Positions 43,844-52,000 of a stretch of 64,000 nucleotides of DNA are shown here, one piece after another. The first letter of the stretch is position 1; the number at the start of each line of letters is the position of its first letter. The DNA lies in the NCBI GenBank assembly GCA_963713615.1, contig CAVQMM010000001.1:3200001-3264000 (forward strand). The letters run 5' to 3'. Origin of the DNA: an uncultured Chlamydiae bacterium. Its GTDB lineage: Bacteria; Chlamydiota; Chlamydiia; Chlamydiales; JAJFMA01. Made by a program: the position numbers and the translations under genes. The notes under the pieces are model-generated. The model did not search any database, was not told the DNA's origin, and worked only from the letters and a program-made list of their open reading frames with translations.

Positions 43844-46800
43844 CCCGTTGTGGCATATACCATGGCGGTGCCATGGCCTGTTGCAATGCCTGCCCTTCGG
43901 GCTTTGGATGGATGACGGTGTGTGTTACAACAATATTGTGTATGGATGCCAGACAATCATCTGCATGGGCATTAACGGCATCCGGGATAATCCATGGACA
44001 TGTTTCGACGATAGTTTCGAATCGAGCGTTTATTAAATAATCTATTTTCAGAGACGCTACAATCATTTCTAAGCCCGAAGGGCAGACATTGCAACAGGCC
44101 ATGGCACCGCCATGGTATATGCAGCAACACGATTTCGCAGCCTGTAGGGCTGCCACAAGACGTCAGGTTGCACACACCGTATATACATGCGTTTTATAGC
44201 AGTCTTTCAGACTGCGTCATCATTTTTTGGCATATACCATGGCGATGCCATGGCCTGTTGCAATGCCTGCCCTTCGGGCTTAGGATGGGAGACGGTGTGT
44301 GTTACAACAATATTGTGTATGGACGCCAGACAATCATCTGCGTGGCTGTTAACCGAGTCCAGGGTGCTACACGGACATAATTCGTTCATAGGATGGGTGG
44401 TGTTGTGTGATACAACAATATTTCGTGTGTATGTCCGAACAATCATCTGCGTGGTTGTTAACAGAATCCAGGATGATCCACGGACAGATTTCAACGATAA
44501 TTTTGAATCGAACATTGATAATTTCGAATCGGACGTCTATTAATCGACCTTTTGTCAGATATGCTGTCACCATTTCTATGCCCGAAGGGCAGGCATTGCA
44601 ACAGGCCATGGCATCGCCATGGTATATGCAGCAATACGATACCGCAGTCTGAAAGACTGCCACAAGACGTCAGGTTGCACACACCGTATATACATGCGTT
44701 TTATAGCAGTCTTTCAGACTGCGAAATCTATCCTGGCATATACCATGGCGATGCCATGGCCTGTTGCAATGTCTGCCCTTCGGGCTTAGGATGGGTGATG
44801 GTGTGTGTTACAACAATATTGTGTATGGACGCCAGACAATCATCTGCATGGTCATTAACGGCATCCGGCATAATTCATGGACATGATTCAACGATAATTT
44901 CTAATCGAGCGTTTATTAAATAATCTATTTTCAGAGACGCTACAATCATTTCTAAGCCCGAAGGGCAGATATTGCAACAGGCCATGGCATCGCCATGGTA
45001 TATGCAGCAACACGATACCGCAGTCTGACAGACTGCCACAAGACGTCAGGTTGCACACACCGTATATACATGCGTTTTATAGCAGTCTTTCAGACTGCGT
45101 CATCATTTTTTGGCATATACCATGGCGATGCCATGGCCTGTTGCAATGTCTGCCCTTCGGGCTTAGGATGGGAGACGGTGTGTGTTGCAGCAATATTGTG
45201 TGTGTATGTCCGAGCAATCATCTGCGTGGCTGTTAACCGAGTCCAGGGTGCTACACGGACATAATTCGTTCATAGGATGGGTGATGGTTTGTGTTACAAC
45301 AATATTGCGTGTGGGTATCCGAACAATCGTCTGCGTGGTTGTTAACAGAATCCAGGATAATACACGGACATGATTTCAACGATAATTTTGAATCGAATAT
45401 GGATAATTTCGAATCGGACGTCTATTAATCGACCTTTTGTCAGATATGCTGTCATCATTTCTAAGCCCGAAGGGCAGACATTGCAACAGGCCATGGCACC
45501 GCCATGGTATATGCCAGGAATGGATTTCGCAGCCTGTAGGGCTGCCACAAGACGCATGCACAAATGAAGCGCTCACAAATAAACATATTCTGGCAGTCTT
45601 TCAGACTGCGTCATCATGTTTTGGCATATACCATGGCGATGCCATGGCCTGTTGCAATGTCTGCCCTTCGGGCTTAGGATGGGTGATGGTTTGTGTTACA
45701 ACAATATTGCGTGTGGGTATCCGAACAATCGTCTGCGTGGTTGTTAACAGAATCCAGGATAATACACGGACATAATTCGTTCATAGGATGGGTGACGGTT
45801 TGTGTTACAACAATATTGCGTGTGGATGTCCGAACAATCATCTGCGTTGCTGTTAACCGACTCCAGGATGACCCACAGAAATGGTTCAACAATAATTGTT
45901 TGAATCGAACATTGTTAATTTCGAATCGGGCATTTACCAAACAACTTCTTGTCAAATATGCTGTCATCATTTCTAAGCCCGAAGGGCAGACATTGCAACA
46001 GGCCATGGCACCGCCATGGTATATGCCAGGAATGGATTTCGCAGCCTGTAGGGCTGCCACAAGACGCATGCATAAATGAAGCGCCCACAAATAAACATAT
46101 TCTGGCAGTCTTTCAGACTGCGTCATCATGTTTTGGCCGATACCATGGCCATGCCATGGCCTGTTGCAATGTCTGCCCTTCGGGCTTTGGATGGGTGGCT
46201 GTGTATGTTACAACAATATTGCATGTGTATGTCCGAGCAATCATCTGCGTGACTGTTAGCCAAATCCAGGATGATCCACGGACATGATTCGGTTATAGGA
46301 TCGGTGGTGTTGTGTGATACAACAATATTGCATGTGGATGTCCGAACAATCATCTGCGTTGCTGTTAACCGAATCCAGGATAATACACGGACATAATTCG
46401 TTCATAGGATGGGTGATGGTTTGTGTTACAACAATATTGCGTGTGGATGTCCGAACAATCATCTGCGTTGCTGTTAACAGAATCCAGGATAATACACGGA
46501 CATGATTTCAACGATAATTTTGAATCGAATATGGATAATTTCAATCGGACGTCTATTAATCGACCTTTTGTCAGATATGCTGTCATCATTTCTAAGCCCG
46601 ACATCCCGCTAGAATTTTTCAAGATTTTTCGTAGCTTTCAGGCGATTTTTCGATGCCAATTCCTTCGGTTTTGAAACTTTTAATTATTTTCTAATTTTGC
46701 TAAATTTATAGAGCCGAAGTAGAGTAGCCGTGCTCCTTTCAACTGCGAAGGGACACGGTGAATTTACTTAGGAAGGTTGTATACAACTCCTATGGGGTTG

Positions 46801-46905
46801 CCGAAGCAGAGTAGCCGTGCTCCTTTTCTGCTCAGCTAACATCGCCGAATTTGCTGACCTTGTTCATTCAGGCCAAACAGAACAAAGCCCGTTTGCTAAA
46901 CTAAC

Positions 46906-48102
46906 TCAGTCTTCCTTCTGACGGTAATCCCTGTCATGTATGAGTATCGACCATATTACTCTTATCATATGACGGGCAAATGCTCGTACTGCTTGGTTAT
47001 GTTTTTTTCCCTCTGCTCTCTTCTTCTTGTAGTACTGTGCAGCCTCATCACATAGTTGTATATGTCGAGCAGCTCCGGTCATCATAGCTCCCTTTCCCCT
47101 CCAGTTAATATTTCGAGGCGATCGAGACCCCTCATATTGGCCAGAACTCTTGTTCAGAATTCCTATTCCCAAGTAGAGCGCTAGACTAGCTTCCGACTTA
47201 AACCGATCGATACTACCAATCTCTCCAGCGAGTTCTGCGGCACAAATGGAACCATATCCAGGAATAGATTCAATCCGAGATGCTATCTTGGATTGTGGGA
47301 TCAAACCCTCTATCAATACCTCCAACTGCGCTATTTCATCTAGCATCTCGAGTAGCCTTCTGACATCTCGTACTATTAATTTTCCTATCCACTCAACCTT
47401 TGAAGAGAACTTAGCCGTCTTTTGCCATTTCTGAATTTCCTCTGCATAAACCTCTCCAACGCCCTTGATTTGCAACAGGCTTCTTTTTTGCATTCGAAGC
47501 AACATGGTCATGTCTTCCTTCGAAGCAAGAAATCGTAGAAACCAAAGATTTGCTGGATTTTTTGTAATAGACAGTAGACCGGGGCAAACAGCCTGTAGAT
47601 CCCCTTGAAGTCGATTTATGATTCTTGTCTTTTCTTTTACCAACTCTCTACGACGCCTTGAAATATGTTTAAGTTGCTCGTTGCATACCGGTGGAGGCTC
47701 TACTTTCTGCAGAATATTTTTTGCCAACGGTAAGGTCTCTTGAACTTGAAACAAGCTAAAAATAGCCCAAGCGTCAATTGGATCTGTTTTGGCTGGACCA
47801 GGAAAAACTTCCTTAAATCTAGCCAATTTCATGTTGTTGACACTATACAAAGAATATCCGTGATCAAGAGCATATCTATCGATGGGTCTAGCATAGCCAT
47901 TAAACCCCTCCATAGCCATGACAACAGGCATGTTATAGGAAATTCTAAGCTTCTCAATTTTCTCAAAAAACTGCTCAATGTCTTCAGAAGTGTGGTTTAG
48001 ATAAAATCCATCGATGCGTTCTCCTGTGGACAAGCCTATGGCTACATAGTGTCGAACGCTACCGATATCTAGACAAATACGAAGTTCGGACTGATTTTGC
48101 AT
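46906..48102 (-). CDS. IS110-family recombinase/transposase
   Basis: DEDD RuvC-like residues (CLDIG, AMEG, KTDPIDA); SIPGYG..AAEL.GEIG.IDRF; catalytic SSG. Confidence 0.93.
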   Translation of the reverse strand: MQNQSELRICLDIGSVRHYVAIGLSTGERIDGFYLNHTSEDIEQFFEKIEKLRISYNMPVVMAMEGFNGYARPIDRYALDHGYSLYSVNNMKLARFKEVFPGPAKTDPIDAWAIFSLFQVQETLPLAKNILQKVEPPPVCNEQLKHISRRRRELVKEKTRIINRLQGDLQAVCPGLLSITKNPANLWFLRFLASKEDMTMLLRMQKRSLLQIKGVGEVYAEEIQKWQKTAKFSSKVEWIGKLIVRDVRRLLEMLDEIAQLEVLIEGLIPQSKIASRIESIPGYGSICAAELAGEIGSIDRFKSEASLALYLGIGILNKSSGQYEGSRSPRNINWRGKGAMMTGAARHIQLCDEAAQYYKKKRAEGKKHNQAVRAFARHMIRVIWSILIHDRDYRQKED

Positions 48103-48139
48103 GATAAATGCCCTGTTAAGTGTTTGTGAGCGTTAAATT

Positions 48140-48353
48140 TCACCCAAATTCCACTTCTACTTACAGAGCCACAATCAGAAGATTGGCACCATCCCGAACG
48201 GAATTATTGGATGATGCAAACGACGAAGGCGGCATATCGGGCCAGGCGAACAAACATTCGCTAAGGGCACACGGCCACACCTTCGTCGGCCAAAATGATA
48301 CCTTAGAGAAATGTTTTTTGTCTTTTCCTATTACCGTCGATAATCGTTTGCAA
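48140..48353 (-). ncRNA. Predicted IS110 bridge RNA
   Basis: Two stem/internal-loop modules carrying guides that match the target (UGCCCUU, GCCCGA) and the donor junction (CGGGAUG, GUAGA). Ends approximate. Confidence 0.8.
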
Positions 48354-49020
48354 AATCCTATGGTAGAAGGGCAGACATTGCAACAGGCCATGGCACCGCC
48401 ATGGTATATGCCAGGAATGGATTTCGCAGTCTGAAGGACTGCAACAAGACGCATGCACAAATGACGCGTCCACAAATAAACATATTCTGGCAGTCTTTCA
48501 GACTGCGTCATCATTTTTTGGCATATACCATGGCGATGCCATGGCCTGTTGCAATGTCTGCCCTTCGGGCTTAGGATGGGAGACGGTGTGTGTTGCAGCA
48601 ATATTGTGTGTGGATGTCCGAGCAATCACCTGCGTGGCTGTTAACCGAGTCCAGGGTGCTACACGGACATAATTCGTTCATAGGATGGGTGATGGTGTGT
48701 GTTACAGCAATATTGCCTGTGGATGTTCGAACAATGATCTGCGTGGTTGTTAGCAGAATCCAGGATAATACACGGACATGATTTCAACGATAATTTTGAA
48801 TCAAACATTGATAATTTCGAATCGGACGTCTATTAATCGACCTTTTGTCAGATATGCTGTCACCATTTCTATGCCCGAAGGGCAGGCATTGCAACAGGCC
48901 ATGGCATCGCCATGGTATATGCCAGGAATGGATTTTGCAGTCTGCAAGACTGCCATAAGGTGTTCTAAACAATCTCTTGTGAATGTCACATAGATTGATT
49001 TCTGGAAGCTCCCCAAAAAA

Positions 49021-49055
49021 AACGTCTAGCAGTCCCAAAAAGACTGCTAGACGTT
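49021..49055. terminator. Intrinsic terminator of the coiled-coil gene
   Basis: aacgtctagcagtc-ccaaaaa-gactgctagacgtt preceded by an A-run (U-tail on the minus strand). Confidence 0.75.
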
Positions 49056-49081
49056 ATATTTGTAACTACAGATGAGATCTG

Positions 49082-52000
49082 CTAGCTATTGTTGTTATTA
49101 TTGTTGTTCTTAGGTAGCTGTATGCTCTTACGTTTGTTGTTGGTGTTAGGCTGGTAAACCTTTACGGTGAGAGGCTTGCCTGCATCTTTTAGCTTCCTCA
49201 CCTCAGCTAACGCACTTCTAAATGTACCATCTGCTCCAATACCTTTGGATATGGATTCTAGAACGTCCAGATTCAGAACATACGTCGTAGCTACCCAATC
49301 GCTCTTCTTGTTGGTTGGCTTGTACGTTAGCGTGATATCTTGGAGGCCCCTACCATCTGGGTGGTTAAAGTGGTTCACAATTTTATTATAGAAAAAGGCT
49401 TGAAGAGCTCTAGTATCATAGCCACCTAGAAAATCCACCACTTGTGTCTGAAGATTGCTGATCAGCTCTGCTTGTTGCTTACTAAGTGCTGCTTGAAGTT
49501 TAGCCTTGCTCTCCTCATTAGCATTTGCCAACTGATGCTTAGTCTTTTCAATTTCTTCATTGAGCCGATTCATATCCTCTTCTTGCCGAGCTTTCTCTAA
49601 TTCAAGTTGTGTTGCAACCTTTTTATGCTCTTCAGCACTCATCACAGTAGTTTCAACCTTTGTTGAAAGCTGAGCATTATTTGCCTGCAACTCCTCCAAC
49701 ATAGACTCAAGCTGAGCAATCCTTGCCGTGCGCTCTTCAATGGTTTGTCGTAAGGTATCATTTTCCTTCATGACACTTTTATGTTGGGTCTTGAGGAGTT
49801 CATTTTCCTGCATCAAAGCGCTTATTCTTTCTTGCAGCAGTCGTAGCTCGTCAGCTTGTGTGTTGATGGTTTCTTGCTGGCCAGAAATGGTGATCTCATG
49901 GGTCTGCACGAGATTGTCTCGTTCTTCAGCAAACTGCGTTTGCTCCTGAAGTTTTTTATTGGCCTCTACAATGGTCTGTTGGGCTTTTTCGAAAGCTTCC
50001 GTTTTGGAATTTAACTGTTCCACAACCAACTGATTTTGCTGCGTCAGTTCGCCGTTCAGTTTCTTGGATTCCTTCAACTCCAGCTGAGCTGCGTTGAGCT
50101 CGTTCTGCGCATCGCTACGAGCCTTGTTGACTTGCTCAAGCTCGCTTTGAACGGTTTTCAACTGATCGTTAAGCTCTTTCTGAGCCTCTTCGAATTGCTT
50201 AGCAGCGTCTGTATGACGGCTTTCAGCTTCGTTGAGCTTCTGACGTTCTTTAGTAACATCATTAGTAAGCTGCTGATTATTCTCTTCAAGCTCCTTCTGC
50301 TTCTGCTGAAGCTTGGTGATCTGCTCATCCTTCCACTGCAAGCTTTGCGAGAAACTTGTCAATTGATTGGCATTAGCACTGGCCGCTTGCTGCAGCTGGG
50401 TATATTCCGTTTCTTTTGTCTTGAGCAGCTCTGACGTTTCTGAAAGCTTCTTCTCAAGCTCACTGATGGCATTTAGGTGCTGTTGTTTGGTCTCTTCAAC
50501 CTGCTTGGCACTCACGCCTTCAGCTTCTATCTTATGTTGAAGCTGATTCTGGAGAGTCTCAATCTGTGACTTGGTCTTCTCCGATTCGTTCTTGAGGCTG
50601 TTGACCTCTGCGCGAGTATCGGCAAGCTCTTTAACAATCCTCGACTTGTCCTGCTTTTCCTGCTCTAGCAGCTCGCTAAGCTGGTCTTTCTCATTATTTA
50701 GAGATTCAATCTGATTTTGGATGCCTTGATGCTGTTCTCGAAGTTCAGACAATTGTTTTTCAAGATCCGCTACGCTAGCAAGTGAACTAGCCTTCTCGGT
50801 ATTTACCTCATGGAGTTGATTTGTCAGAGATTTTTCTGTCCCAGCGAGCTTCTCCTCGATCTCTGTTTTTTCACGTTCAAGTGCCTTAAGCTGCTTTTGA
50901 TACTCTTCAACCTCTTTTCTTAACTCAGACATTTTCTCCTTCTTACCACGGAAAGAAAACCCATAATTAATATTCTCTTGCTGATATTTGTCGCGCTCCT
51001 TCTTAAGCTTAAGGATGGTTGATTCACTCTCATTCAGTTTCAGGTTTCGGGCAGAAACTTGGAGATTGAGAATCCCCATTTGTCTTTCAAGCTCCTTGAT
51101 TTGATTTGACGCAGCGTCTTTCTCTCTAGTGACTCTATCAAGTGCTTGTGTCATCTCGTTAAGTGCTTGTGTCATCTCGTTCAGTCTAATTACCTGCTGC
51201 TGATTTTGAGATTGGTTACTTTCCAGACTCTGTATTTGATCGTTCAGTTGTTTTGTTTCTGTTTTTAATGTACTAATCTGGCTGCTTAGTTTGGATTCAT
51301 TTTGTTTTAACACGTATAGTTGAGTTTTCAATGCATTTGATTCATTTTCCAACTTGCTAATTGTGCTAGTCAGATCGTTTATCTGATCGTTTTTATCTTT
51401 CAGAGAGATTTTATTCTGGCCAATGGTCGCCAAATATTTTTCACAAGCTGTAGTAGCCTGCTGGAAATTTGCCTCAGCATCGTTCAGGTCCTTTTGCAGC
51501 TTTTGTAGCGCTTGCTTGTTTTTCTCTAGTTCAGCCTTTAGAACGTTGTTTGTGTTAGAAAGCTCAAAGTTCTTTGGTTGGAGCTGGTTATATTTCAATG
51601 TGATCTGTTCGACGTTTTCCTCGGCTGACATAAGCTTTTCTTTGAGCTTTTGAATGCTAGCAACCAAATCATTATTAGATAGCTGGTTATTAGCAGTATT
51701 CACAACGGATAGTGCTTGATCTAATAATTCCTGAAGTAATTTATTTTGTTTACTAAGTCTTTTAATTTCAAAATATAAGATACTAAACTCGTTAGTGTTA
51801 TCGTCTAAATCTCTGTTATTGTTAACGGTATAGGAGTGTTGCTCAAGCGCTTCTAAGATCGATTGAAAGCAAGAGTTATTTTCTCTGCGGAGGATCACTA
51901 TCAGCCCGGTCAAGAGTGAATTGCCTTTTGCAACATTGGTTTTAAACATTTCCCAGTCTTCTCGAAGTTTTTTAAACTTAAGATTACTAATTGGGAGTTT

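Follow-up and report, generated by a model that had tools for sequence, protein, structure and literature searches.

Organization of the locus

The window, a stretch of 64,000 nucleotides from an uncultured Chlamydiae bacterium, contains on its minus strand an insertion sequence that interrupts one hairpin of a REP-like repeat array (Table 1). The element carries a 398-aa open reading frame (ORF), which is preceded on that strand by a non-coding stretch of 263 nt and followed by a right-end non-coding region.

Table 1. Positions in the window of the element, its predicted bridge RNA, the core and target, and the neighbouring repeat array.
Feature	Position	Strand	Basis or remark
Y1 (HUH) transposase gene, 150 aa	43391-43843	+	Ends 3 bp before the array
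REP-like hairpin array, alternating orientation, 109-bp internal units	43846..48990	.	Element sits in one hairpin
Right target half GGGCTT	46594..46599	-	Junction reading, genomic copies
Whole IS110-family element	46602..48365	-	1764 bp; ends set by nine genomic copies and empty sites
Right-end non-coding region	46602..46905	-	304 nt, ~200 nt longer than in most homologs
-35 box TTGAAA	46617..46622	-	Right end; 17 bp from TACCAT after circularisation
Recombinase gene, 398 aa	46906..48102	-	Pfam, conservation, profile match to ISCro4/IS621 structures
Bridge RNA body (predicted), target-binding and donor-binding loops	48140..48290	-	Fold z -3.17; scaffold kept in 65 homologs; stem covariation
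Donor-loop outer stem, 3' strand	48140..48152	-	Fold
Right donor guide (RDG) and handshake	48154..48160	-	GUAGA 48160-48156, complementary to TC+TAC, then handshake AG 48155-48154
Donor-loop inner hairpin GUGCC...GUGGCUC	48165..48189	-	Fold; columns 124-129/170-174, column 129/170 with 16 double changes
Left donor guide (LDG) CGGGAUG	48190..48196	-	Equals last 7 bases of right end; kept with right ends in homologs
Donor-loop outer stem, 5' strand	48200..48214	-	Fold; stem of at least 6 bp in 61/66 individually folded sequences
Target-loop outer stem, 3' strand	48221..48233	-	GCC (48233-48231) + GCCUUCGUCG (48230-48221); fold, compensatory changes
Right target guide (RTG) and handshake	48235..48243	-	GGCCCGA 48243-48237, complementary to TC+GGGCC, then handshake UA 48236-48235
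Target-loop inner hairpin GCGAA-loop-UUCGC	48246..48261	-	Fold; homolog compensatory changes, columns 35-37/53-55
Left target guide (LTG) GUGCCCUUA / GUGCCCUU	48262..48270	-	UGCCCUU (48269-48263) equals target top strand plus first core base
Target-loop outer stem, 5' strand	48274..48288	-	CGACGAAGGU (48288-48279) + GGC (48276-48274); pairs with 48221-48233
-10 box TACCAT	48360..48365	-	First six left-end bases; TA(C/T)CAT in homologs
Core dinucleotide TC, left junction	48366..48367	-	Second copy at 46600-46601
Left target half CTGCCCT, part of REP-like hairpin	48368..48374	-	Same as left half of 14 uninterrupted local-variant hairpins

Recombinase

The ORF matches two Pfam domains, the DEDD (RuvC-like) N-terminal domain PF01548 (1.3e-19, 70.9 bits, cut-off 29) and the C-terminal Tnp domain PF02371 (4.8e-13, 49.7 bits, cut-off 21.3). 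Solved structures searched with the single recombinase sequence gave no match, and a profile of 24 relatives retrieved two bridge recombinases from the same collection: ISCro4 (PDB 9t56, 3.3e-13), the best solved relative by profile, with low identity and an alignment that spans the DEDD and Ser regions, and IS621 (8wt6, 1.1e-12). The assignment to the IS110 family made in the first-pass annotation is thus borne out by both the domain and the profile matches. Conservation across 24 sequences is complete for D12, E65, D110, S320 and G321 and at least 90% for D107; D12, E65, D107 and D110 align with the DEDD motifs of ISCro4, and S320-G321 with its SG. By analogy only, S320 would be equivalent to S241 of IS621. 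The nearest proteins are metagenomic and about 50-64% identical to the recombinase, the closest of them at 59-64%, while the best matches among sequenced plasmids are ~27% identical.

Boundaries, copies and insertion sites of the element

The 3.97-Mb genome (three contigs) holds nine left-end and nine right-end junctions, that is, nine copies of the element. Of these, seven are complete, and other insertions of ~2.9 and ~3.3 kb interrupt the remaining two; the aligned parts of all nine are 100% identical. The copies share identical ends and differ in their flanks, which defines the element boundaries, and the empty sites concur. The element is without terminal inverted repeats, its left end beginning TACCATAGG and its right end finishing GCGGGATG. 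With a slash marking the element end, the left junction in the window reads ...ctgcccTTC/TACCATAGG, or tgcccTTC/TACCAT (48366/48365), and the right junction GCGGGATG/TCgggctt (46602/46601). TC is the sole sequence common to both junctions and the empty site CCCTTCGGG. Comparison of the junctions with uninterrupted neighbours (CTGCCCTTCGGGCTT) therefore gives a duplication of exactly TC.

All nine copies are inserted in the same hairpin, in the same orientation and with TC on either side. A TC core had been proposed from the window copy, and both junctions of every copy as well as the empty sites agree with it; copies elsewhere in the genome likewise lie at sites related to CCCTTCGGG, as the proposed targeting had implied. 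Two variants of the hairpin are used. Eight copies lie in ATCGACCC-TTC-GGGCCTG, which belongs to the common variant (CGACCC-TTC-GGGCC, CGACCCTTCGGGCC), and the window copy alone lies in the local variant, GTCTGCCC-TTC-GGGCTTA. The genome retains 256 empty sites of the common variant (CGACCCTTCGGGCCT) and 14 of the local one (CTGCCCTTCGGGC(TT/AT)), about 270 hairpins altogether. The idea that the RNA is aimed at the hairpin of the local array thus applies to the window copy, which does lie in it, but has to be widened for the other eight, which occupy the commoner variant with its 256 empty sites. A preference for the local over the common variant was considered but is not supported (1 occupied/14 empty vs 8/256, Fisher p = 0.40).

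In the two interrupted copies (C1:1751220-1754079 and C1:3548261-3551525 of the host genome, G000) the query overlaps by 9 and 8 bp, respectively, and these overlaps resemble target-site duplications of other transposons. The same genome has three other, different IS110-family (PF01548) genes or fragments (C1:2769885-2770322, 2145904-2146338 and 374916-375101), one of them with a TAA stop. When public sequencing runs were searched with positions 46560-48420 of the window, 12 runs (11 peat, one soil metagenome) held at least half of the element's sampled words, and the 20 listed runs with element words come from 17 studies.

The long right end contains a 26-nt direct repeat, AAAGGAGCACGGCTACTCT(G/A)CTTCGGC, in two copies ~90 nt apart (46720-46850, minus strand). 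A second RNA in this 304-nt region was rejected, its fold being no better than those of shuffled sequences (z -0.79). Contigs from three RNA libraries cover 46723-46984, which documents presence only.

Predicted bridge RNA and its guides

The non-coding stretch upstream of the recombinase had been read in the first-pass annotation as a bridge RNA with two stem-enclosed loops. Each of the words picked out there was found in place on the minus strand, and the fold of 48135-48300 (minus strand, 166 nt) gives both stems, each around an internal loop and an inner hairpin. Its energy is -58.2 kcal/mol vs -45.0 +/- 4.2 for shuffles (z -3.17; 0/200 as good). In the outer stem of the target loop CGACGAAGG (48288-48280) pairs with CCTTCGTCG (48229-48221), and in the second stem CCAATAATTCC (48210-48200) pairs with GGAATTTGG (48152-48144). 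The whole 268-nt left end, tried as the folding unit, gave a different global fold with a weaker z of -2.58, and the 166-nt body was preferred. An Rfam 15 scan of 44000-52000 (E <= 1) left the RNA region unmatched and returned two chance microRNA matches only.

Two metatranscriptome libraries from different studies hold contigs over 47982-48247 and 47995-48255, at 100% identity and low depth. They attest presence in RNA libraries and not transcription, with DNA carry-over being possible. Such contigs are absent over 48256-48293 (the 5' half of the target loop), which is uninformative either way.

The proposed fit of the target loop to the target was upheld for UGCCCUU and for the words of the RTG, which includes the originally noted GCCCGA (48242-48237), and failed at one position: the LTG ends in an A (48262) that does not match the second core base, where C is expected. 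The fit of the donor loop to the element's own circle junction, cgggatg-TC-tac, was confirmed, since CGGGAUG is the tip of the right end and GUAGA complements TC+TAC; in the present register the LDG pairs with neither core base. The LDG and RDG words are conserved together with the element ends in homologs. All four guide words were found in 0/200,000 Markov-1 random left ends, and the product of their single frequencies is 2e-6.

In its best ungapped match the left guide agrees with the local variant at 7/9 positions and with the common variant at 5/9, where a G-T wobble may add one more; for the right guide the figures are 6/7 plus a wobble with the local variant and 7/7 with the common one. 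One RNA evidently serves both hairpin variants. As all nine insertions were made by identical sequence, the core mismatches of the two left guides, LTG and LDG, are evidently tolerated. Given that eight of the nine copies lie in the variant with the poorer left-guide match, either the distal positions of this guide are tolerant or another factor contributes. For IS621, core pairing is reported to be strongly preferred (PMC11208160).

Handshake bases, donor tip and predicted junction promoter

The handshake guides described for IS621 are the bases just 3' of RTG and RDG, which pair with position 7 of donor and target after strand exchange (PMC11208158). In the window element GUAGA is followed by A, which faces target T (C facing G in 52/53 homologs), and the RTG by U, which faces donor G (A facing T in 44/44 homologs). 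The next handshake bases fit too (G opposite C, A opposite T), and the RDG handshake AG complements the target bases CT immediately left of the core. Both handshake bases have shifted along with the target and the donor end that are new in this element.

The right end of the window element is one base shorter than in 44 homologs (GGGATG vs GGGATGT). An extra spacer base offsets the missing terminal T, and TTGAAA stays 17 bp from TACCAT after end joining. The -35 hexamer lies 15 nt from the right-end tip in 45/45 rows, read by eye from a fixed-width listing, all of them with the 17-bp spacing; it reads TTG(A/C)(A/C)A in 44 of them and TTAAAA in one. A conserved promoter (-35 box, 17 bp, -10 box) is predicted to form only at the circle junction, and the bridge-RNA promoter of IS621 is likewise rebuilt there (PMC11208160). 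If the junction promoter drives it, the bridge RNA transcript would begin near 48353. An internal promoter, AAGACA-18-TATCAT at 48324-48295 upstream of the RNA body, was also considered; it is not claimed because the five sites in the region are not above chance (3.7 +/- 2.1 expected).

Homologous elements and covariation of guides with insertion sites

A metagenome scan identified 80 loci with 47-56% identity, the homologous elements being 1424-1726 bp long; a search of genome contigs for related loci gave four, the best of them a partial 56% match at a contig end. The RNA anchors are present in 70 of 81 sequences (the 80 loci and the window), and 66 distinct RNA regions were aligned. Analysis of these 66 sequences by RNAalifold revealed compensatory changes in the outer stem of the target loop, in its inner hairpin and in the inner stem of the donor loop, with double changes in 12 of the 22 predicted pairs (for instance, AU 43/GC 18 in column 8/81 and GC 51/AU 9 in column 12/77). 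The outer stem of the donor loop is missing from this output because the alignment is gapped there; in sequences folded individually it reaches at least 6 bp in 61/66, and the outer stem of the target loop at least 8 bp in 65/66.

Homologs sit at ...GGGG-TC/TACCAT... and finish ...GCGGGATGT/TC/AG..., GGGG-TC being found in nearly all with a mapped left flank. Covariation of guides with insertion sites in homologs, the test proposed at the outset, was seen for the RTG: its reverse complement matches the element's right flank over 4.67 bases on average vs 3.65 +/- 0.12 when permuted (0/10,000; 54 pairs after removal of redundancy from 56 with a flank), in a test that, as the next one, overstates independence because the homologs are related to one another. 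The longest single matches between RTG and flank comprise 9 bases (loci L054 and L077). The LTG matches its own left flank at 6.75/9 positions vs 6.41 when permuted (0/10,000; 52 non-redundant pairs), a weaker signal because almost all homologs share GGGGTC. Covariation of the LTG and of the handshake bases comes essentially from one lineage, the window element. This element is an outlier, with an LTG and an RTG that differ from those of the clade and suit the site it occupies: at most 6/9 positions agree between its LTG and homolog flanks, and at most 5/9 between homolog LTGs and the window flank.

A hairpin target as a clade-wide property was rejected. A stem of at least 4 bp across the core is present at 7/40 homolog sites, and re-paired flanks reach the observed mean in 88/2000 trials. 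As the homolog targets are mostly not hairpins, the REP target is a property of the window element and not of the clade.

In several homologs (L095, L106 and others) the target-loop stem is preceded, at a distance of ~10-35 nt, by a small hairpin such as GGTAGA-ctg-TCTACC. One of its arms repeats the donor word TC+TACC; the window element is without it.

Target repeat and host genome

The hairpin word GCCCTTCGGGC is intact 13 times in the window vs 1.1 expected (0/100 shuffles reach 13), and with the copy split by the element the array contains the 14 hairpins counted in the first-pass annotation. Of the 14 intact local-variant hairpins of the genome, 13 lie in the window array. Genome-wide there are 299 CCCTTCGGG sites. 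The common variant forms 138 clusters, comprising 68 pairs, 65 singles and five arrays of 6 to 16. In copy number and arrangement the repeat agrees with REPs, which are short extragenic palindromes with hundreds of copies, many of them in inverted pairs.

Within the window array (43846-46599 and 48368-48990) the hairpins alternate in orientation at spacings of ~181, 196, 311 and 421 bp, which vary because 1.9 to 2.9 tandem copies of the 109-bp unit lie between hairpins. Arrays of the common variant elsewhere have a period of ~473 bp, as at C1:2273587-2277371 with 16 hairpins.

The Y1 transposase next to the array scores 57.6 bits with the NCBIfam IS200/IS605 model (cut-off 55) and 22.4 with the REP_Tyr_transpos model (cut-off 80). 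None of the other five Y1 matches has a hairpin within 3 kb. The Y1 gene and the array may together form a REPtron-like arrangement.

The best named relatives of the MnmG protein encoded in the window belong to Chlamydiales and Parachlamydiaceae, at 85% and ~73-74% identity. The chlamydial lineage suggested at first sight is accordingly right for the host. A search of 40 relatives of the host did not find the element and gave two weak matches only (23-29% identity); 'chlamydial' therefore describes the host and not the origin of the element. Among 20 relatives searched, two genomes of the same family, both without the element, contain 13 and 14 copies of the common hairpin word, and the other 18 contain none. 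The presence of the hairpin in genomes without the element indicates that the repeat is older than the element and has expanded in the present genome.

Proposed mechanism and alternative explanations

Taken together, these data describe an insertion sequence of the IS110 family that is intact and has a bridge RNA of the IS621 type encoded in its left end. This RNA is predicted to direct the element to a TC core within the loop of a REP-like hairpin (CCC-TTC-GGG); we assign this reading a probability of about 0.88. By analogy with IS621, the element would excise as a circle, and the junction of its right and left ends would create the TTGAAA-17-TACCAT promoter, from which the bridge RNA would be transcribed. 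The left guide of the target loop would base-pair with the bottom strand of ..GCCCT-T, and the right guide of this loop with the TC-GGGCC top strand. At the circle junction, the partners of the donor loop would be CGGGATG and TC-TAC, and TC would be the site of strand exchange by the DEDD/Ser recombinase.

Alternatively, recognition of the REP hairpin as target could depend chiefly on the recombinase itself or on DNA structure, with the RNA matches contributing little. Such recognition would account for the eight of nine insertions in a variant that has 2-3 mismatches to the distal left guide; the target is indeed a stem-loop, and a preprint on ISPpu10 reports that the target stem-loop adds specificity beyond base pairing. 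However, homologs with the same RNA scaffold have mostly non-hairpin targets and their RTG follows its own flank, and the guide and handshake words of the window element have changed exactly to fit the new site. We regard this explanation as improbable, though as the strongest of the competitors.

Still less probable is that the copies represent a recent burst that has since fallen silent, so that the RNA and the gene look intact in an element that is immobile, for example owing to its core mismatches or its shorter right end. Pointing in this direction are the LTG without a match to the second core base, the LDG without a match to either, and a right end with one base fewer than in 44 homologs. 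Yet the shorter end is accommodated by the promoter spacing and by both handshake bases, and nine copies with the same features at nine different sites indicate that the present sequence has transposed repeatedly. That the structured left end is a leader regulating translation or stability of the recombinase mRNA, its guide-like words being coincidental, is hardly credible: the RNA does immediately precede the start codon, no terminator is predicted in between, and the RNA-library contigs do extend from the donor loop into the gene, but against it stand four ordered words with a joint chance of ~2e-6, the covariation of RTG and flank, and the homology to recombinases whose solved structures include such RNAs.

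Returning to the bridge-RNA reading, we can extend it to an evolutionary scenario that we consider possible but rather doubtful. The usual target of the clade is (T)GGGG-TC-AGGTC; one of its elements may have entered a chlamydial genome horizontally, may there have undergone natural reprogramming of its six specificity words (LTG, RTG, both handshake dinucleotides, donor tip and promoter spacer) and may now parasitise the resident REP family. It would use a single compromise guide for two variants, the left guide fitting the rare one adjacent to the transposase and the right guide the abundant one, and would work without left-guide pairing to the second core base. If this is true, the reprogrammed element is a natural map of dispensable bridge-RNA positions.

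Comparison with known systems

The IS110 bridge-recombinase system was described in 2024. By every feature tested, the assignment of the window element to this family is well supported, its activity being predicted from sequence. It resembles IS621 of Escherichia coli (IS110 group) in its DEDD and Ser recombinase and 2-bp core, in a left-end RNA with a target-binding and then a donor-binding loop, in left guides equal to the top strand and right guides complementing it, in handshake bases 3' of RTG and RDG and in a circle-junction promoter (PMC11208160, PMC11208158), as well as in a natural target within a REP sequence (PMC11208160). In contrast to IS621, the window protein is distant (a profile match of 1.1e-12 only) and has 398 aa vs 328 residues in the IS621 chain; the core is TC vs CT, and the LTG has no second core match. 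The inverted repeat flanking the element, AAAATTCTA / TAGGATTTT, agrees at 8/9 positions (by eye) vs 2-3 bp reported for the IS110 group.

ISPpu10 and ISPpu9 of Pseudomonas putida (IS110 family) are likewise reported in multiple identical copies in one conserved intergenic stem-loop repeat. They differ from the window element in host phylum and target sequence, and the latter uses two diverged repeat variants. ISPa11 (IS1111 group, seekRNA) is an RNA-guided DEDD transposase with a REP target in P. aeruginosa (PMC11187229), and natural reprogramming is reported among its relatives (PMC11187229). In the IS1111 group the RNA lies downstream of the gene and the guide order is reversed, whereas the RNA of the window element lies upstream and is of the IS110 type. 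REP targeting, natural reprogramming and a role of the target stem-loop are already in print (PMC11187229; ISPpu10 preprint), and the element reveals no new mechanism. When the literature was searched for IS110 in combination with chlamydia, neither term appeared in the title or abstract of any paper returned; the clade may be listed in the orthologue tables that supplement the 2024 papers.

Significance

Bridge recombinases are under development as programmable genome-writing tools, and natural variants show which of their rules are flexible. The present element adds a divergent orthologue with a TC core and evidence that two target variants with differences at three guide positions can share a single RNA. 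It would also add a complete natural retargeting event, in which handshake bases and promoter spacing moved with the guides. For chlamydial genomics, it represents a recently active, putatively horizontally acquired mobile element together with its landing pads in an unusually repeat-rich 3.97-Mb genome.
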